From positions 51,499-71,498 of the forward strand of contig PS015015.1 of NCBI GenBank assembly GCA_048213135.1: a stretch of DNA of 20,000 bases. Direction: 5' to 3'. Below the pieces are notes generated by a model. That model was not told the origin of the DNA. It worked only from the letters and a program-made list of their open reading frames with translations, and did no database searches. The stretch comes from Reclinomonas americana ATCC 50394 (taxonomy: Eukaryota). Of this stretch, positions 8,165-20,000 are shown in pieces. How positions within the stretch are numbered: position 1 is the stretch's first letter; every line of letters starts with the position of its first letter. A program made the translations under genes and the position numbers.

Positions 8165-11100
8165 ATGTCGTCGCGGTCGCCTCCGCCTTTACTGGTGGGC
8201 GACGGACGGTCCACGACTCCCACCTCGGTGACCTCGTCAGTGCTGCAGTCGCACTCGTCGCTGCCTCCGCAGGCTCCACTCGCCGCGCGTGGCAGTCTCG
8301 CTCTGGTGGGCTCTGCGGACACAGGCGCAGGCAGCAGCAGTGGTGGTGGTGGTGAGCGACCCAGCACACCAGTGAGTCAAGGCGCACACTCGGGAGGCGG
8401 CGGTGCAGCAGCAGCGCCTCAGCGCAGTGATTCGCTGCGTGGAACCCTGACGCAGGTTCGTCTCTCTCTCACACACACGCACTCTCCCATCCACACATGT
8501 GTGTCTCTTTCATCTCACAGGAGGAGTTGGAGGGCACCGATCGCTTTCTCCGCTTTGGCGATCGCATTGTGTTGATGCACGCCGACATGCGTGGCTTTAT
8601 CACCAGCGAAGGGTGTGTGTGTTGGGGAGAGAGAGCAGCTATGTGTGTGTTTGTTGTACTCACATCTAGTCATGTCTCGCAGCACGGTCGACGATCGCGT
8701 CGGTCTCACTGCCGGCACTCCCGGCAACCTGCCGCTCACGCCCTCTGGTGAGCTCCCTCCTCCATCTCCGTCTCCGCCATCTCCTCTTCGCGCTCACTGG
8801 GCGTCGCTGCGCAGATGTGGTGTACGAGTTGACTCCGATCACCTCGTACAAGGCGCAGTCGGCCTTTACGCGGCGCCTGAAGAAGGCCATTGATGACTTT
8901 GCGCCGGATCTCACGGCAGTCGGTCGCGCCGAGGTGCTGCGCTCGTTTGATGCGCGCAGACCGCCTCCGTTCCTGCGAGTGGTGCGTTCGCTCGTCCATG
9001 TCTGTGTGCGTGTGTGCCTGATATCTACGCTGCTCACCGCATTGCCCAACAGGATCAACACGAGGAGCGCCGCCTGGAGGAAGTCGGGGACGCCAACGAC
9101 AAGATCGGTTCGTTCAACCTGGGCCAGATTGTCGGCACGTCGCTCGAGCTGTACAAGCGGCGTCTCGAGGGCCAGTCGAAGAGTCGCACGCTGGAGGAGT
9201 TGATGGAGTTGCAGGTGCGCTGTTGTGCATGAGATAGTGAGGGAGAGAGAAACAAAGGCGCTCATTCACCTCGTGGGCAGACTCGCGCCGAGTCCGAGCT
9301 GGCACAAAACAACGCCGAAGACGAGCGTGCGAACGGTCGACCGGTCACCTACGGCACTGTGGTGCAGCTGCGACACGTTCGCTGGGGTCACTACGTGACC
9401 GTGCAGAGCGACATTGCGGAGACGGATGCCGCGTGCACTCGTATTGCGCTGCAGCCGACGGCCAGTTCGCGCTCCTTCTTCGTCATCTCGGCCGGCAGTC
9501 GGTTCCGCGCCGAGGGCGAGCGCGTGCAGATTGGCGACCTGGTGTCGTTCCTCAACCGCAAGTTTCGTCTGTACATTCACGCCAGCCGGGCGGCGATACG
9601 CGACCGCTTCCGTCGTCTCGAGGTCAACGGCTCCTTTGACGAGACACACTGGCTGCTGCTGCTGTACTCGCGAGCGCGTGCGGCTGGCGACGAGGACAAG
9701 CTGATGGCTGGCGACACGGTACGCATCTTTCATCCGCAGCGCGATGGCTACGTGGCGCGCGTCGTCGGTGCACCGGAGGATCTGTATGGTTTGTTGCGCG
9801 CATACCTATGCTCTGTTGATGATGAAAGAGTCACCTCACCACCACCACCACCACCACCACCACCACCACCACCACCACCACCACAGTCTCCATCAACGAG
9901 CAGGAGAAATCGGAACTCTCGCGACCGATCCTGCCCGAGGCCGATTTCGAGATTGAGCGTGAGCTGCCGGTGGCCGGTGGATTGATGCGCTTCGGGCAGA
10001 CCTTCCGCCTGCGTCACGTGCTCACCGGTGCGTATCTGCGAGTGGAGCCAAAGGTGGTGGACGAGTCGTTGCAGCCGGCGGACTGGTTCGGCGCCGTGGT
10101 TCGCGAACGGCGCTTCACTCGCGCCCACGTGCTGCGCGATCAGAGCGACGACGACGACGACGATGACGACTATGCAGGCGGCATGGGTGGCGACGGTGAC
10201 TTGGACAGCCTCGGCCTTCCGCCGTCGCCGACGTCGCTAATGTCACCGGGAGCGACTGACGATGACGCGGCGCGCATGTTTGACGATGACGATGATGATG
10301 AGGGTGGTGGTGGCATGGTGGCCTCGATGAATCCCCTGCAGCGGAATCAGCGACAGAATTCCGCACGCACCCTTGGCGTCGAGAGGCGCCGATCCATTCG
10401 CGCATCGTCCACGTCCATGGAGATTGGCAAAGGTGTGTGTGTGTGTGTGTGTGCCTCGCCAGCGATTATGATGTATTGAGTCTAACGCCGTCATTTCCCC
10501 GCAGGCTATTTTGCTCGCCGCCGTCCGAGTGCTGTGGAGGCTGCAGAGCCGATCCCAGTCGTCGACGTGTCGGATCTGGTGGTACCGGTCAAGGTCCGTT
10601 TCTCCGACGACCGAGCGGATCCCAACTGCCTGTTTGCCTTTGCGCCGCTGCAGTTTGCGGTGCGTTTTTCTCGCATGGCTGTTCGCCGCGCGTACCAGCG
10701 TGATTTCTCACTGGTGTGCATGACGCTGCGTACGATGCAGGCCGACGACGATGGTCGCAGCGTGGTGCGAGCCGATGCTCTCGTCAGTCTGCGACACGCC
10801 GCTACCGGTTTGTACCTGTCGAATGTCGAGTCACCGATTTGTTTCCGAGGCGTTTCGCGACGCAAGCACACGTCCGCCCCGGTGAGTCCTTCACCACCTC
10901 CATCGGTCCACGCACAATCCTGACTCGCCTTTGTCCTCTCACGCAGCTGTGCCTGTCCACCATTCCCGATCCCAACACGGCATTCCGCGCGTCGCGAACA
11001 CTGCAGAGCGATGTGCAGGATCTGTACATTACGACGCTCACCATTGGAGTTGCGGCGACGTGGTGGTGGTGGCAATCGTCAGCCGTCCTTACCCACTCAC

Positions 11101-14100
11101 GTGCTTGATGACACCCGACAGTACTTGGATCAACTGCGCTCGGCACTGAACGAGAACGCTCGCGATCGGCTCGTGGACTACCGAACTGCGTCGACAGTGC
11201 TGCCGCGTTTGATTCGCATGTGTACGGACAGCTCCGAGCTCGACGTCTTCAAACGAGAAGGTGCGCTTGCCTACTGCTGTTACGGGAAGGAGATTGGTGG
11301 GTGTTGACTCGGCTGGTCTCAGGTGCCCCAATTCGCTCACGGCAGATTCTGTTTCGCGAGTGTGGAGTTTCGTTGTCGGTCATCGCTGTGCGCTCTGCTA
11401 GTTGGTGCTGACCGATTGCGATAGATGTACGCGTTCCTGGCACAACTGGCCGCGGCCATCACAAACTCGCGTGATGTGGAGGCTCGTGGCGAGGCCGGCA
11501 GTGTGGTCACGGATACGCTGCGACTTGTCTTCCGGCTCATGAAGCAGATGAGCAAGCAGTACCCGCTCAATCTCTCGCTGTTCCAGCGTGACCTGCCGCT
11601 CTTGCTCGAGTTCTTTGGACGCGATGTCGGCGCCGAGGCCGCCATCATGGAACTGTTGCGTCTCCGAAAAGAAGCAGCAATCGTATCCGCGTGCAATGTT
11701 CTGACACCACCCCGCCCTCTGCTGTTTCACAGTTTCTCGAGCAACAGCCACAGCCTCGTGCGCCAGATCGACTACAAGTACATTCAGTTCTTCATCGATT
11801 TGCCTCGTCGGCGGGGCTTCACATTTGAGTTTCGTGTATGTGCGTTGCTGGCATCGTCGCCGCTCATGACTAACAAATTGAGTCTTAAAGGCACTTGCCG
11901 TTCCTCATCGAGTTNNNNNNNNNNNNNNNNNNNNNNNNNNNNNNNNNNNNNNNNNNNNNNNNNNNNNNNNNNNNNNNNNNNNNNNNNNNNNNNNNNNNNN
12001 NNNNNNNNNNNNNNNNNNNNNNNNNNNNNNNNNNNNNNNNNNNNNNNNNNNNNNNNNNNNNNNNNNNNNNNNNNNNNNNNNNNNNNNNNNNNNNNNNNNN
12101 NNNNNNNNNNNNNNNNNNNNNNNNNNNNNNNNNNNNNNNNNNNNNNNNNNNNNNNNNNNNNNNNNNNNNNNNNNNNNNNNNNNNNNNNNNNNNNNNNNNN
12201 NNNNNNNNNNNNNNNNNNNNNNNNNNNNNNNNNNNNNNNNNNNNNNNNNNNNNNNNNNNNNNNNNNNNNNNNNNNNNNNNNNNNNNNNNNNNNNNNNNNN
12301 NNNNNNNNNNNNNNNNNNNNNNNNNNNNNNNNNNNNNNNNNNNNNNNNNNNNNNNNNNNNNNNNNNNNNNNNNNNNNNNNNNNNNNNNNNNNNNNNNNNN
12401 NNNNNNNNNNNNNNNNNNNNNNNNNNNNNNNNNNNNNNNNNNNNNNNNNNNNNNNNNNNNNNNNNNNNNNNNNNNNNNNNNNNNNNNNNNNNNNNNNNNN
12501 NNNNNNNNNNNNNNNNNNNNNNNNNNNNNNNNNNNNNNNNNNNNNNNNNNNNNNNNNNNNNNNNNNNNNNNNNNNNNNNNGTGCTCCACGGACGAACCAG
12601 TTCGCCGAAACCAGGTGCGTACCCGATCATAGACAGCGAGCAGCGTGGATGGTGGTGGATTGACACGTTGTTCCCCGTCGTGCAGGAGTACATTCTCGAG
12701 CACTTGGTGATGCCGGATCGTCCGTACGTGATCCTGACGCAGATGCGCGGCGACACGGTGTATCTGGTGGCCGATCTTGACGGCTCTCATTTCGAGTCAC
12801 GTATTGTGGATGTGGCGTGGCCTGGTTGGGCGCCGCCACCCATGCGACCAGATGCCACTGCGTCGGGTGAAGCTCTGGCGAACTACGAGCAAGCGCGTGC
12901 GAGTTTTGAGCGATCCAGATTGCACGCCGAGTTCTACCTGTTGCAAATCAACTTGTTTTCCGAGCTGTGCGCAGTTACGTACCCTCTCCTCCTGTGAGGT
13001 GCATTATGTTCCTCTCTCCCTCTTGCTCACTCTCTGGACGATGCAGGGCCGCAATCCACGCGCACAGCAGATCATTTCGCGACTGCTGCCAATCAACGTT
13101 GCTGTTGTCGGGTGTGTCACTCATCCGTCATGCGGCTGACGTAAAGGACATGTTGCTTATCGGTGGCATGTGCACGCACAGGCTGATGGAACCGGGACTG
13201 CCGAGTCTCGTACGTGCCGCGTTTGACCGCTTGCTGTTGCATCTGTACGTGGATCGCAACCCGTTCAACAAGATCCAGCTCGTCGAAACGCTGCGGGTCT
13301 GTGTCCTCACAAAGTGCTCTCGTGCCTCTCATTATCGGACTCATCGTATTGTCGCTGGCAGGTGTGGGCCGACATTCCCCTGGAGCCGCAGTTCCATCGC
13401 AGTGAGACGTACGAACTGCAGCAGATTCGCCATCACGTGTCTTCCGGTTTCTCAGTGCTGCCCATCATGAACGACATGCTGAACGCCATTATCTCGTTGC
13501 TGGTGAGTCTCGTGTTGCCGCCGTTCACGCCACGCGCTGCCAGATGGTTGTGGTTCTGAACAAAGCCACACAGCGCTGGAAAGGCGCACTGCGAATGCGC
13601 TGGCGCGATCCCAACTTTACCAACTTTCATGTCAACACCGTTGCGTGCAGTTTCGTCTGTTGCACACCCTCCGAGTACAGCTCTGAACTCCTTTCTGCAG
13701 ATGCTACAGCTGCTCATGGCGATGTTGGAGGAAGGGTTCGTGACACACCGCGGCTACTTGGTGCTGCTCAACGAGACGCTGTGGGACCTGGTGGATGGAC
13801 GCACTGACGACTACCTCGGTTTGTTTCATCTTGTTCGTCATATCGCTGTGGTGCGCGGCCACTGAGAAGCCCTTTCCGTGGCAGGTCAACCGGATTCCTT
13901 CCGGTACAGTGCCAACGAGAACAACTTGATCATCATGGTTTGTGCGGCGTAGCGGTCAGTCAGTGTTGCTGCCACACACATCTCACATGTGCACAGGAGG
14001 TCAAGTGGCGCGCGTGCCGCATCTTGGATCTGCTACTGGACATTCAGGTGAACCATCGTGTGGCCAAGTTCCTCTCCTATTTCCGTGGTGGCAATCCGGT

Positions 14101-17100
14101 CGAGATGGAGCGCATGCTCGGTCGCACGTACATTGTGGAGGTCAACGACCAGACACTGCCCATTCTCTCCGACCTGATGAAGTACGATTCGGCGCCGCTC
14201 AACGCCGTCGCGTCGCGTCTGCTGTTCCGCGTCTTCCAGTGCGTCCACCTTGTCTCTGCCTCCGTTTTCTTGCAACTCATGCGTTTCTGGCAGACAACGA
14301 ATGGAAATGTTTTCGACGCTGGGACGCACCACGCTGCTCGTGTCGCACTCCCTTGTCGAAGCATTCGTGCGCCTGCGCACGGTGTGGGACGAGCTGCGTG
14401 TGACACTGGTGGAGCATCCCGACTGGCCGTCGCGGACAAACATTGTGCAGCAGATTGTGCGCCTGCTGCGCACCCTGCGACACGGTGCGCCGATTCTTAT
14501 CGGGTTGCCGCACTTTATTGTCACCGCATTCTCACTCCTAGGCTCGCTGCCGCGCAGAGATGCAAACCTCGAAGCAGTTGCAGGTGCTGGCCCGCTCATT
14601 GTCGTTGCATGACACGCTGATCAATGTGCTGAAAGCACCAATGTTGCGACTCTTCACATCCCTCGGTCCCCTCTCTTTCCACTTTTCTCACCTCGTCGTT
14701 CCTCGCAGTCGCAATCAGCGGCCTGTGCCCGGCACACCGCTCTTTGAGGCATTCGCCCTGATCTACCAGATCCTCCAGTTGGTGTGTCATTCGCTGCAAG
14801 GAAGAACGCCTGTTGTATTCGTTTCTCACTGTGTCGCGCCACACACCGCAGTACGTTCTCCGCAATGCCGAGAATCAGCGCGCAGTCTCACGAAACTGGA
14901 GTCTGTTTGTCACGCATTCTGGGTTCGTGATGACTCCCGTCCGTTTGCCGTGCTCGAAAGTCCCTCACTATGCCTTGTTTTTGCAGCGTCGGCATGGGCA
15001 CAGAGGAGCTGTTGCACACCATATTCGATGGCAATCGCCGTCTCGTGGAGACTGTCGACCCATCGCTGGTGCGGTGGTGGATTTCGGACATGGCCAGCCG
15101 CACGCCGAATTACAAGTCGCTGGCCTTCCTCAAGGTCCGTTCCTGCCGTCCTGCGTGCGCATCTTGTTTCTGTCAATTTCTATGCTGATTGCTTGCGCTA
15201 GTCATTGGCCGTGGTGAACGACGCACCGATCCAGCACAACCAGATTCTGGTGATGGACAACCTGATCGAGTTCCGCAATTCGCTGGTGCTCTTTGAGACG
15301 CCAGACGGTCGGCGAAGACGGTGCACACACCGGGGCTACTCCTGACTGCTGCACCTCTCAGTCACTCACTAATCACCATCGTTGTGGTCCGTGTGCAGTC
15401 GCGAGTTGATGCAAGGTGGCGCCGAGGCCGATCCGCGTGCGTCGTTGGCACCACTGCTGGAGTATCATGTGGAACTATTGAGCCTGCTCTCCCTGTGTAC
15501 GGCTGGACACTTTCACCAGACCGAGGCACAAGCGCAGCAGCTGCTGTCGTTTGCCACGTGTGCAGACATGCTGCTGGAGGCACAGCAGCTGCCACAAGTG
15601 AAGCAAGGCCTCCTGCAGTTCTTCACCGAGGTACGCCACGTGTTGCTGCATCATCGCGTTACGCCTGATTGCTGACCTTGCCATTGCATGCTACGCAGGT
15701 GTACGTCAAGACGGAGCGTTTGGTGCCCGCCGTCAACTTTTCCACCGACATGTGCAACGTGCTGCGATCCGTATGTGGCGACCTGGCGCAGTTCATTCGC
15801 CTCTCGCGCTCGTCGCTGGCCTCCACCACTGCTGTGCGCATCAACTCCACGNNNNNNNNNNNNNNNNNNNNNNNNNNNNNNNNNNNNNNNNNNNNNNNNN
15901 NNNNNNNNNNNNNNNNNNNNNNNNNNNNNNNNNNNNNNNNNNNNNNNNNNNNNNNNNNNNNNNNNNNNNNNNNNNNNNNNNNNNNNNNNNNNNNNNNNNN
16001 NNNNNNNNNNNNNNNNNNNNNNNNNNNNNNNNNNNNNNNNNNNNNNNNNNNNNNNNNNNNNNNNNNNNNNNNNNNNNNNNNNNNNNNNNNNNNNNNNNNN
16101 NNNNNNNNNNNNNNNNNNNNNNNNNNNNNNNNNNNNNNNNNNNNNNNNNNNNNNNNNNNNNNNNNNNNNNNNNNNNNNNNNNNNNNNNNNNNNNNNNNNN
16201 NNNNNNNNNNNNNNNNNNNNNNNNNNNNNNNNNNNNNNNNNNNNNNNNNNNNNNNNNNNNNNNNTTGAAGAGGTGCTGTTTACCGTGGCTCCCTTGCTTT
16301 CTTCTCGCAAGCGCACTCACACTTCGTGACAAAAAATGTGCAGTAGTGGACAGGAAATTGTGGATGAACTCGCTGTCAACGTGCAGCGGGTCAGGCGGCT
16401 CGCGCGCGGCTCTGGCGAACGCTCCGTAACCGATCGTGCCATTGCGGCTCTGGTTCGACCGCAGTGGACGCCAGTGGCTGTGGATTCGCGAGTTGTACGT
16501 CCACTTGCTTGTTCCTTGTCGTTTTTGTCGTGCACATGGCTCACCCGTGACGTCTGTGAACCAGCTTTCGACGGTACCGTCGGCGGCCACGTTTGAGATG
16601 TCGTCGGCGTCGCTGTCTTTCAATGGCATGCGCAGCCCGACCATGATCTCACTCGGTGACGAAGCTGAAGTCGCGCTGGAGGAGCGACTGCAAAACTATG
16701 TGGAGGCCAAGTGCGTCTGTGTCTGCCAATGCATGTGCGTGTGTCTATGTGGAATGGACATTTGACTCTTCCGCGCCACAGCAAACCGGCTGACCTGGAC
16801 ACCGATTACGACGATCTACTCCGCCTGCTCATCACCAATCGGCAGTTGTTGGCACGGCTCATCGAGTTGCTGAGGTGCGTCCGTGATACGTCGACGAGTG
16901 AGCGATGCGCTGCGCAAGCTGACCGCGACTTCGGTCAACATGTAGACCAACAAAGGAGAGCGACCGCGACGACATTCCTCCGGAGGTGGCAGTCATTGAT
17001 GAGGAGACGCGCCTGATGGACGTCATGCGAATCCTCTCGCTTCTGGTGACCCGCGGCGGTGAAGTGGCCGATATTAGACCGGAGCACCAGCGGCAGACAA

Positions 17101-19933
17101 CGCTGCAGTGCATGCTGGCGGATCTCGGTGCCGTGGAAATGGTAACTCGATAGTGATAGTGTTGTTGGGTGGTGGTAAGCACTGAATGCTGCTTGTGTGT
17201 GTCGCGCCCGCAGGTGTGCCAATTGATGACCCAGGCGCAATCACCCAAGCTGGCGCAAATGGTGTTTGAGTTTGGCTGCAAGTTGCTGCAGGGTGGCAAC
17301 CGCTACGTGCAGACGTACTTTTACCGCTTGATGCAACACGGCGGCAGCGCCGAGCATCTTCTCGTGGGCTTGCGCAATCGTCTGCAAGTTGCGACGACGG
17401 AGATTGACGAGAAACTGGCGTACGAGGAGCTGCTTGAGCGCCGTCGCAATGAGCTCGAAGATGACGAGTTGGGTGCTCGTGTGCAGTGTCTTCCCCCTGT
17501 CTCTCATGCACTGCTGATGTCTGTTGCGCAGAAACAATCCCGAGAACGACGCGCTTGAAGTGGCATTCGAGGAGCGCGGGTTTGCGGCAGAGGTCCTTCG
17601 CTTCATTCAGTTGCTGTGTGAAGGGCACTATCTGGAGATGCAGGTACGGCGAGTGTGAGGGAGTGATTATTACAACTGCGCTTGTTCACTCACTCGTGGG
17701 ATCACAGGATTTCCTCCGTCGACAGCCCGGTCGTGGAGTGGAGAATGTGGATGTGGCCAGCGAGATCCTGAGATACTTGCGCGCACTGGAGCCCAATCTG
17801 ACGACGGCGCGCGTGGATACTGCGGTGCAGCTGTTCGCGACGCTGACCGACCTCATGCAAGGCCCTTGTGTGTCCCAGCAGCAATCACTGGCCGCCTCCG
17901 ATTTCCTGTTCATCGCCAACCGCCTGCTGGAGACGGCACCGAATGATGCACCGTCACTGGGTTTTGCACGACTGCAGCTGACCGTACTCGACTCCATGAT
18001 GGCAGTGATTGAGGTGAGTGCTCAGAGGAAAAGTGTACGTGTTGTGTATCAGTCAGTCCTCATTGTTGCGCGCAGGGGCCATCGGCGTTGGAAACCACCA
18101 AGCAACTGCGACTGGCCATCACACTGAACAACATTGCGCGCAGTGCAGTGCAACTGCATGCCGTGATGGAGGAAGCCGAACGGGTGGGCGTGCACCGCAA
18201 CATTGTGTCGTACGGCAAGAGTCTGTCGACAAACGCGATGCGACCGGCGTCGCCCGACTTCCCGCTGCAGAAGGCTTTCACGTTTTGGATAGAGGACCCG
18301 GTGCTTATTCGCACACTCGGTATCCGCTACTACTTCCTCATCAACAGGCTCGGCGACGCGTCGCCCACTGTGCAGCGGCATGTGAGTTGATGTGGATAGT
18401 AGAGCCGGCGCTATGTGTGTGTGTGTGCCGACCGTCGTTCGTCGCAGATCGGCAAGTTGGTGGACGATGAAAGTGCGCGGCTTGGCATCCGTCCCGCGGC
18501 TCCCGGTAAGTGCCTGCTGTGGCGTTTCCAGCGCAACACCGGGCACGTGGAGGTGCTTCGCAATCAGGAGGTCGAAAAGTTGTACTTTGAGATTCCGCCT
18601 CTGGCCTCGTGGTTCCAGTCGCGGCTCTATCGCCGCTGGCAGGACGAGGTCGATCGCAGCTCGTCGACCTCCAAACTGGAGGGCCTCTTCCGTGAGGTGC
18701 CATACTTTTACCAGCACATGCGACACGGAGTTGCGTGAAGTGTCTTGTCTGTCTATCCCGTTTCTTACGCACATCCTCATTCTCTTCGGCGCCCACCTCG
18801 CAGCTGTACTTGCGTGAGACAAAGTGGTTCCGCTACAGCAATCTGACGCTGCCGTACACGCGCCAGCTCAGCTTTGTCGTCGGCCTCTGCATCAATCTGA
18901 TTCTGCTGTTCGCCTTCCAAGTGCAAAACATCGACTCGGACTTGAACGTTGTCACGTTGCGTCTGTGGGAGAGGGTCAGCACTCTTGTCGCGTGTCGGAG
19001 GTTGCGGAGCTCATGTGGCGATGCTTCGTGCAGATCGTACGGCTACAAGACGGACGGAGCCGGACATGCAGTCATCATCCTCGCCATTATAGAAATCTTC
19101 CTTCAGCTACTTCTGTTCCTTGGTTATATTGCCGGCCCAGGTGCATTGCGCGCCATGAAACAGTGGTCGCCGGCACTCGGATATGTTGCGCTCCACTGCT
19201 CTTCATTTCATCGTCTTGCTTCCCCACCGTTTTCTTGACTGTGGTTTTTCTTGTCTGCAGCAACACTTGACGGATCTACCGCGCGCTTCGGCCTCTTTTA
19301 TGCGCAACATTCTCCGCGGGTACTTCCGAGACTTTTTGTTCTACTTTAGAGTGCGTTCGCCGACTGTCGGTGTGGTGCGCTTCACGTGTTGCTAACTATT
19401 GCTCTCACTCGCTGCAGGTGGCCTGTGTGGTCGTCAGTGCACTCGGATTGCTCGTGAGCGAGGCGTTTTTCCCGTTCCTGCTGCTGGACGTGGTGCTGTC
19501 GTTCAGCATTCTTCGCAATGTGGTGCGATCGGTGTCGACAAGCCTTGTCAACCTGCTGCTGACGGTGACCACATTTGTTTGCGACTTTGTCGTCTTTCAA
19601 GCTCACCCTTTGTGCACAGCTCATGCTCGGTCTCTTCATCATCTTCTTCTTCGCCATGGTGCAAATGGTGTCCTTCAACGACGAGTTCATCCTGTCCGAC
19701 GGCTACCGCATCTGCAGCGAGGCCACCGGCTGCTTCTTCAATCTCATGAACTTTGGGTACGCGCGGCTGCTTTTTCTCTCTTTCACATTTGAGCTCACGT
19801 ACGGCACGTCGCAGTTTGAAGCATGGTGGCGCCTTCGAGGATCTCTACCCTGTCAATGTGACGCCCGCACGAGTCATTTTCGACTTGCTGTTCTTCTTCC
19901 TGATTCTCGTCGTGCTTCTCAACCTGGTGTTTG
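8165..19933 (+). CDS. ITPR: Inositol 1,4,5-trisphosphate receptor family Ca2+-release-type channel (divergent), about 46 introns, 3'-incomplete (continues past the window within helix S6)
   Basis: Collinear ITPR motifs after splicing: FLRFGDRIVL, GTVDDRV, YKAQSAF, VTYGTVVQLRH, RAEGERVQIGD, GDTVRIFH, FRLRHVLTGAYL (suppressor/MIR trefoils); RSRQILFRE, DVGAEAAIMELF (RIH); LVRAAFDRLLLHLYVDRNP; RLLFRVFQQR; second RIH TIFDGNRRL; YHVELLSLLSLC; LLQGGNRYVQ; LRFIQLLCEGHYLEMQDFLRRQ; LTDLMQGPC; TGHVEVLR..VEKLYFEIP; TM region ending ARVIFDLLFFFLILVVLLNLVFG (IP3R1 [23 protein letters not shown]). One intron near 16270-16355 is unresolved. Confidence 0.96.
9837..9883 (+). repeat. (CCA)n trinucleotide repeat at the 3' end of ITPR intron 9789-9886
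   Basis: About 15 perfect CCA units directly before the acceptor cag; gives spurious poly-Pro/His/Gly in the ORF track. Confidence 0.95.
11915..12580. other. Assembly gap (666 N) inside the ITPR-like gene
   Basis: Run of N. Confidence 0.99.
15852..16264. other. Assembly gap (413 N) inside the ITPR-like gene
   Basis: Run of N. Confidence 0.99.
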
Positions 19934-20000
19934 GTGCGTCATCGTTGACTGCATTCATTTCCCTCGAGTGGTTATGCTCATTGGCTTCTCCTCTATCATC

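Follow-up and report, generated by a model that had tools for sequence, protein, structure and literature searches.

An IP3R/RyR-family channel gene with GGAFED at the selectivity-filter position and its relation to the filters of Naegleria-type channels

In the 20,000-nucleotide stretch of Reclinomonas americana ATCC 50394 DNA analyzed here (contig PS015015.1, positions 51,499 to 71,498; the whole of this stretch is called the window below), the plus strand carries a multi-exon gene of the IP3R/RyR family, whose pore has GGAFED at the filter position where canonical and animal channels have GGG(V/I)GD. This filter seems to represent the earliest branch of a type shared with the IP3R-like proteins of Naegleria, and not a product of decay or error; among the known forms of the filter type [GDE]-G-[AF]-[FW]-E-D it is the least derived. 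The shared origin of this filter and that of the Naegleria-type clade is moderately supported by the phylogenetic analysis. The window holds most of the gene, whose product is probably a pore-forming subunit in a tetrameric, intracellular channel for cation (Ca2+) release, a member of the IP3R/RyR superfamily.

Filter sequence and its splice junction

The GGAFED reading of the filter after removal of the intron 19757-19814 is confirmed. Exon 19620-19756 terminates in ...AACTTTGG (nucleotides AAC TTT GG) and is followed, after the intron, by exon 19815-19933. Joined and translated by script, the two exons give ...RICSEATGCFFNLMNFGLKHGGAFEDLYPVNVTPARVIFDLLFFFLILVVLLNLVF, the spliced product around the pore being ...CFFNLMNFGLKHGGAFEDLYPVNVTPARVIFDLLFFF... 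The preliminary description of this DNA had read the filter region as GLKHGGAFED, with three consecutive filter positions and an R>K replacement differing from the canonical motif, and both statements hold: the joined-exon translation is identical, the intron is like its neighbours, and the replacements are plain from the sequence. Its view that the pore helix and S6 are conserved and in frame is likewise supported, as the S6 exon alone (parvifdllffflilvvllnlvf) matches human IP3R3 in a phmmer search of the PDB (E=4.4e-5). Coding sequence runs on past the donor GTGCGT at 19934. In the HMMER alignment of human IP3R3 (mnhglrngggvgdil) with Naegleria (lnyglrtggffedqf) there are no gaps, hence the filters can be regarded as equivalent position by position. 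An alternative exon with GGG(V/I)GD, which might have overturned the reading, is absent: no other coding stretch with GGGxGD or G[LV][RK]xGG turns up when the window is translated in all six frames.

Two other treatments of the junction were rejected. If the intron 19757-19814 is retained, the frame is open but S6 then falls out of frame; the next AG that could be taken as the acceptor (19820-19821) leads to a stop.

It is very improbable, in our opinion, that GGAFED is an artefact, whether of sequencing or assembly at 19825-19842 or of a mis-modelled splice, or that it belongs to a decaying pseudogene. There are some grounds for such a suspicion: the 20 kb contain three runs of N, two of them within the gene (11915-12580 and 15852-16264), and the assembly is therefore a draft; moreover, a close relative with which conservation might be checked was found neither by HMMER among representative proteins nor by the metagenome scan. 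On the other hand, to turn GGAFED into GGGVGD three independent substitutions are needed (GCC>GGC, TTC>GTC and GAG>GGG), and a frameshift origin was rejected as well, as no frameshift yields GGGVGD. The splice adopted is the only in-frame GT..AG solution restoring S6 and resembles the eight sister introns; a filter of the same kind is present in independent genomes. Finally, the ten exons modelled from 17214 to 19933 can be read through without a stop for 711 residues, the nine introns between them (55-76 nucleotides) all start with GT and end with CAG, and the joined coding sequence has a strong codon-position signal, with a GC fraction of 0.73 at third positions (GC3) versus 0.38 at second positions (GC2). 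The least certain exon ends are the donors 17468 and 19185, picked among alternatives. Wherever it is readable, the gene is intact, with its open frame, uniform GT..CAG introns and codon-position GC, in agreement with the earlier opinion that general decay is unlikely.

Relatives with an aromatic-Glu-Asp filter

A HMMER search of 1.84 billion representative proteins with the RIH_assoc open reading frame (ORF) of the window gave 24 matches, the best of which was an 83-residue fragment with 57% identity; no close relative was among these proteins. The search for homologues with the read-through ORF 19750-19998, covering proteins of up to 2000 residues, returned nothing that scored. The filter-bearing relatives were gathered from the RIH_assoc HMMER matches and from two follow-up searches with the homologue proteins, and locus L001 from the metagenome scan described below (Table 1).

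Table 1. Filter region of the window gene and of its filter-bearing relatives
Source	Sequence
Window	GLKHGGAFED
Naegleria gruberi P0025 ('predicted protein'), N. fowleri P0026 (FDP41_012062), P0010	GLRTGGFFED
Willaertia magna P0005 (KAL9643554.1)	GLRTDGFFED
Environmental P0027, P0030, P0031	GLR[GA]EGFWED
P0016	WLRDEGFPEG
Metagenome locus L001	GGFWED (filter)

The aromatic residue followed by Glu and Asp occupies the same ungapped position in P0025, P0026, P0005, P0010, P0027, P0030, P0031 and L001. In an alignment of seven proteins (32-40% identity to the first row) the L, R, second G, F and E columns of the filter are invariant; such invariance among seven divergent proteins indicates that the variant filter is conserved and under constraint rather than drifting. 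The clade pattern is [GDE]-G-F-[FWP]-E-[DG], and the window filter shares with it the G, the aromatic residue, the E and the D, while having Ala at the invariant Phe and Lys in place of the Arg of the clade. The loop between the filter and S6 comprises 9-11 residues in the window and the variant rows versus 14-19 in four canonical rows. As to S6 itself, the Asn of L-N-[LI]-[IV]-F is retained in the window, P0027, P0030, P0031 and L001 and is replaced by Glu in Naegleria, Willaertia and P0016 (LFEVVF, LVEAVF and MMEVVF).

A metagenome scan with the seven-protein alignment retrieved 49 loci, and the filter was readable in 37 of them. The sample leans to relatives of the variant clade, because the scan patterns were of the CF[IV]CDI and WNY..F types, and the tallies count loci and not lineages, several loci being near-duplicates. 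The readable filters were GGGIGD (13 loci), SGGIGD (5), GGGIGE (4), QFGIGD (4), LGGVGD (3) and, with one locus each, GGGMGE, KKGIGE, RKGIGE, FGGISD, GPVFSD, KSVRND, GGFWED (L001) and EGMPEG (L002). G-[IVM]-G-[DE] was kept in 32 of the 37, and Glu at the fifth filter position was rare (2 of 37). GGAFED itself was found in none of these 37 filters. The question raised earlier, whether GGAFED marks a clade, can be answered positively in a broader form, that of [GDE]-G-[AF]-[FW]-E-D in Naegleria, Willaertia and environmental sequences, to which the window gene is sister in the 29-row tree (92/90, see below). When the C-terminal 711 residues of the window product were compared with the 49 loci by tblastn, the best match was L001, with GGFWED (221 bits; the next single alignment scored 122 bits). 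An analogous scan with the RIH_assoc exon of the window yielded 596 pattern matches and no relatives.

Further non-canonical filters were noticed in P0007, P0021, P0033, L014, L023 and L027, with the readings GLTYDGLAQGLEGVRD (with an insertion), GLRKTDVGD, SGGNLG.., GPVFSD, KSVRND and FGGISD. The filter diversity of environmental IP3R-like channels exceeds the canonical and aromatic-Glu-Asp types.

The aromatic-Glu-Asp type has already been sequenced, yet we found it in no paper within the literature searched. The strings GFFED, GGFFED, GGAFED and GFWED occurred in no channel paper in a text search, outside of which lie figures, most subscription journals and supplements. No paper on the selectivity filter of a Naegleria IP3R was found, the papers retrieved for Naegleria and IP3R being, by their titles and the beginnings of their abstracts, not on the channel; nor did the searched literature contain a functional study of the Naegleria/Willaertia-type proteins. 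Naegleria is unmentioned in PMC7016017. The preliminary description also considered that the motif could be already common in described protists, and this is so for non-canonical filters in general, which the available parts of PMC3213138 and PMC7399828 describe; the aromatic-Glu-Asp type was met in none of the papers searched.

Phylogenetic position

The filter columns were excluded from all trees. The tree with 29 rows and 666 columns, taken from the C-terminal part, places the window gene next to eight filter-variant rows as their sister, with support of 92/90, the variant rows themselves forming a clade at 100/99. The window and the eight variant rows were grouped in 91% of 200 bootstrap trees, and none of 500 label shuffles was as good. 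To the earlier rows this tree added, from 18 of the 49 loci, ORFs that cover the whole pore and have 600 residues or more; P0010 and P0032 were removed prior to alignment, and the near-duplicates L013, L007 and L037 as well as P0033 were omitted. In a tree of 12 rows, which omits the five long-branch rows P0033, P0021, P0014, P0007 and P0032, three canonical rows separate from the window and the eight variant rows at 74/80. The proteins of the Naegleria-type amoebae presumably come from AT-rich genomes. Base composition is therefore an unlikely cause of the grouping, in which a GC-rich gene joins them.

Pore function

We think it likely, though far from assured, that the gene encodes a working tetrameric cation-release channel with two carboxylate rings at the filter mouth and with changed conductance and divalent/monovalent selection. 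In the P-loop the pore helix is retained together with both leading glycines, and the luminal half of the filter is A-F-E-D in place of G-(V/I)-G-D; the channel would still conduct cations. With a further Glu next to the conserved Asp, each tetramer would have two rings of carboxylates at its luminal mouth, and the number of acidic residues in E-D equals that of the D-E pair in RyR (GGGIGDE). The aromatic residue at the V/I position may repack the loop against the pore helix; with such repacking, and with the shorter loop to S6, the Glu could be tolerated in the variant clade. Conductance and divalent/monovalent selectivity would then be unlike those of animal IP3Rs. According to the available part of PMC2995152, GGGXGDX lies in or near the filter, a V-to-I change raises IP3R conductance, and acidic residues concentrate cations.

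Weighing of the alternatives

A number of observations speak against a functional filter of shared origin. In rabbit RyR1 the mutation G4898E (G4899E in human), at the position of the window Glu, abolishes voltage-gated Ca2+ release, as the available part of PMC2217374 reports, so Glu at the fifth filter position is not tolerated in the animal background. The window has Ala where seven of seven aligned clade members carry an invariant Phe. The window gene sits on a long branch (1.9 changes per column), and the support of 92/90 is under the starred threshold of the tool. A tree of 17 rows (950 columns) unites eight Naegleria-type rows in a clade with support of 99/99 and leaves the window gene on a long branch in a polytomy; only 16% of its bootstrap trees place the window with the variant rows (this figure counts seven rows labelled as filter-variant, P0016 being unlabelled), and the quick tree pairs it with another long branch. 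The approximately unbiased (AU) test of the window and the eight variant rows gave p=0.355, which neither rejects the clade nor demonstrates it. As to the gene itself, it is incomplete, with the two N gaps, and with the C-terminal domain and the post-S6 linker, where the CxxC zinc-finger motif would be expected, beyond the window, and the RIH domain (PF01365) was undetected in the 95 and 32 ORF translations scanned; here the exons are short, the N gaps (1079 nucleotides) lie mid-gene, and tblastn shows colinear homology across that part.

Convergence is the main rival to shared origin. In this case a divergent IP3R-like channel would have gained the aromatic-Glu-Asp filter separately from the Naegleria-type clade, and GGAFED would be private to its lineage and not transitional. 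The 17-row tree and the Ala at the invariant Phe position fit such an origin, as do the nearly equal identities (22-28%) of the window gene to every homologue, the window S6 (LNLVF, FDLLFFF), which is nearer to animal IP3R3 than to Naegleria (LFEVVF), and the occurrence of odd filters elsewhere (GLAQ.., GPVFSD, KSVRND). Nevertheless, we consider convergence unlikely: the 29-row tree, built without the filter columns, gives one group, the best tblastn partner among the 49 loci is the one with GGFWED, the single clade is not rejected by the AU test, and the short filter-to-S6 loop is common to the window and the variant rows.

As for the possibility, raised in the preliminary description, that the product is a non-conducting or modulatory subunit, which would assemble, possibly with a canonical paralogue, but would itself lack a Ca2+-permeable pore, we regard it as quite improbable, although less so than an artefact. 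It has in its favor that the RyR1 G4898E protein, as well as other filter mutants, still assembles, is targeted and couples while its Ca2+ release is abolished (PMC2217374, in the part available), and that a canonical paralogue could be present elsewhere in the genome. However, filter residues that are invariant across a divergent clade better fit a role in permeation than a dead pore, and the pore helix, both Cys, and the Asn and Phe of LNLVF in S6 are retained. In addition, for each Naegleria species the pore-region searches gave a single variant protein and none with a canonical filter, which is weak evidence, because a word search favors look-alike pores.

A bolder reading, which we put forward as a doubtful speculation, is that the aromatic-Glu-Asp filter represents an old, separate class of the IP3R/RyR superfamily with permeation unlike that of any characterized member, GGAFED being a surviving intermediate. 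If so, the double carboxylate ring might provide for much tighter divalent selection or for another preferred ion, and the class would span Heterolobosea and at least one unrelated-looking, GC-rich protist lineage. Were GGAFED an intermediate, the Gly-to-Glu and aromatic changes would predate the loss of the third glycine.

The reading of a conducting channel with a filter of shared origin is of interest for the following reasons. GGGxGD is treated as the pore signature of IP3Rs and RyRs, and among the mutations of human central core disease is one that puts Glu in place of the Gly in position five, with loss of Ca2+ release. A clade conserving this very Glu together with an aromatic residue may be considered a natural experiment in ion selection and conduction by this pore. 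The window contains the form of the filter type nearest to the canonical one, with three filter residues differing and an animal-like S6, and for this reason it should be the most practical donor for pore swaps into IP3R1. It also appears that the filter type reaches beyond the AT-rich Naegleria-like amoebae.

Gene organization and neighbouring features

Membership of the gene in the IP3R/RyR family, in line with the earlier assignment to ITPR-like channels, follows from Pfam domains, colinear tblastn matches and PDB matches (Table 2). Eight full-length homologues of 2368-3446 residues match colinearly by tblastn from 9278 to about 19800; a weak upstream match at about 8542-8622 (E 0.13-0.31) may extend the gene upstream. 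The best PDB matches of the N-terminal ORF are IP3R2, IP3R1 and IP3R3 (E about 1e-15), those of RyRs being at 3e-9 or weaker. The Pfam scans covered 95 plus-strand ORFs and then 32 further ORFs. In neither scan did Ion_trans match the ORF fragments of the window; the channel domain (S5, pore helix, P-loop and S6) is present by the homologue alignment and the match of S6 to IP3R3. The host of the gene is a GC-rich, intron-rich eukaryote without a close sequenced relative among the proteins searched.

Table 2. Location of the channel gene and of its parts in the window
Feature	Position	Strand	Basis and remarks
IP3R/RyR-family gene with many short introns, running past the window end	9278..20000	+	Colinear tblastn matches of 8 full-length homologues
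Ins145_P3_rec (suppressor / beta-trefoil), N-terminal	9308..9667	+	PF08709, E=1.1e-18, 67.6 bits; residues 26-145 of ORF 9233-9982
MIR domain stretch	9946..10125	+	PF02815, marginal (25.8 bits, cut-off 25.6); residues 41-100 of ORF 9826-10476
3' exon chain, first five exons	17214-17467, 17532-17643, 17708-18013, 18076-18381, 18448-18729	+	Script model
3' exon chain, last five exons	18804-19184, 19261-19350, 19418-19564, 19620-19756, 19815-19933	+	Script model
RIH_assoc, with intron 17644-17707 inside	17575..17929	+	PF08454, E=3.7e-13 and 3.2e-6 on two ORFs
S4-S5 linker and S5 (FPFLLLDVVLSFSILRNVVRSVS...LMLGLFIIFFFAMVQMVSF), with intron 19565-19619 inside	19418..19676	+	Homologue alignment; tblastn matches 19397-19636
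Pore helix CSEATGCFFNLMNF, with both conserved Cys	19713..19754	+	Homologue alignment; human IP3R3 counterpart cdtllmcivtvmnh
Intron, 58 nucleotides, GTACGC...TCGCAG	19757..19814	+	Splits the Gly codon preceding Leu-Lys-His
Selectivity-filter position, GGAFED	19825..19842	+	Six-frame search; alignments with homologues
S6 pore-lining helix ARVIFDLLFFFLILVVLLNLVF	19867..19932	+	phmmer against PDB, human IP3R3, E=4.4e-5

RIH_assoc scored 49.7 bits at a cut-off of 28.5 and contains two motifs, LLCEGH, with its Glu codon at 17620-17622, and LTDLMQGPC, with its Asp codon at 17849-17851. Its HMMER alignments with RyR1 and RyR2 are ungapped, with weak E values of 0.04-0.5; in them RyR1 position 3893 is opposite the Glu of LLCEGH, and position 3967 is matched by Asp instead of Glu. 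We take these two RyR1 positions to be cytosolic Ca2+-sensor residues. In rat IP3R1 the cytosolic Ca2+-sensor glutamates in ARM3 are E1978 and E2042, and in human IP3R1 the change E2002D, which corresponds to the Asp of the window, lowers agonist-evoked release (PMC9522344).

Introns and inserts of low complexity break up the region of the IP3-binding core (9757-11400), for which no alignment of the basic IP3-coordinating residues proved reliable. A perfect (CAC)16 repeat at 9837-9884, between the Ins145_P3_rec and MIR blocks, corresponds to 16 Thr in the frame of the MIR ORF, and at 10100-10330 this ORF runs into acidic low-complexity Asp/Gly stretches (DDDDDDDD...DDDDDDDEGGGG) within the would-be ligand-binding region. 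Outside the channel gene, the only other Pfam match in the second scan (32 ORFs, of which 25 precede the channel gene) was a Yip1 domain (PF04893, E=1.3e-7) in the minus-strand ORF 4300-4815. A (CA)29 microsatellite is located at 7231-7288, ahead of the channel gene, and the window has repeated shorter runs of CA/GT, seen in its ORF translations as HTHT and CVCV strings. Rfam gave no matches on the window.

Comparison with known channels

Odd filters have already been described in protist members of the superfamily, as the accessible parts of the reports on Paramecium and oomycetes indicate. Among the 34 Paramecium channels (CRC-I to VI) the full consensus is found only in CRC-IV-1a/b and CRC-IV-2, and CRC-VI has practically no similarity (PMC3213138, available part); the ITPR-like channels of oomycetes have GGGIGD or GGGLG(G/S) (PMC7399828, available part), and parasite homologues are reported by Prole and Taylor to have a conserved GGGXGD (PMC3194816, available part). 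The window channel is similar to the Paramecium and oomycete proteins in being a protist member with a non-canonical filter, but in those proteins either the GG[V/I/L]G core is kept or there is no similarity at all, and the aromatic-Glu-Asp combination is not mentioned in the available parts of these papers. The window filter departs from the GGGxGD consensus; as many accepted protist members lack this motif (PMC3213138, available part), it defines animal channels and not the superfamily.

With RyR1-3 (GGGIGDE) the window channel shares the superfamily, a pair of acidic residues in each subunit at the filter's luminal end (D-E in RyR, E-D in the window) and the gap-free alignment of the RIH_assoc motifs LLCEGH and QGPC. 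In contrast to RyRs, its acidic residues are displaced by one position and occupy the site of the Gly whose mutation to Glu abolishes RyR1 release (PMC2217374, available part). RyR chains have about 5000 residues, well above the length of the colinear homologues; the window N-terminus scores lower against RyRs, and no SPRY or RyR-repeat domain was matched in the plus-strand ORFs of 7565-20000, ORFs running into an N gap excepted.

Metazoan IP3Rs (ITPR1-3; PDB 6DQJ, 7T3P and 3JAV), like the window gene, combine N-terminal Ins145_P3_rec and MIR with RIH_assoc, S5, the pore helix and S6; the N-terminus of the window product finds its best matches among them, the S6 pattern is nearly identical, and G-L-[RK]-x-G-G is retained. 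The differences are A-F-E-D in place of G-V/I-G-D, the shorter loop after the filter, Asp in the window aligned (weakly) with the second Ca2+-sensor Glu, and the undetected RIH domain.

The window channel also resembles the IP3R-like proteins of the Heterolobosea Naegleria and Willaertia (P0025, P0026, P0005) and of further relatives (P0010, P0016, P0027, P0030, P0031 and L001), to which the window gene is sister at 92/90 in the 29-row tree and with which it shares the domain order, the aromatic residue followed by Glu and Asp after G-L-[RK]-x-x-G, and the short loop between the filter and S6. At 22-28% identity, the window protein differs from them by Ala instead of Phe and Lys instead of Arg, and it keeps the canonical Asn of S6 (LNLVF) where Naegleria, Willaertia and P0016 have E-[AV]-V-F; unlike its Naegleria-type relatives, the window gene is GC-rich and is divided by many introns of 55-76 nucleotides.

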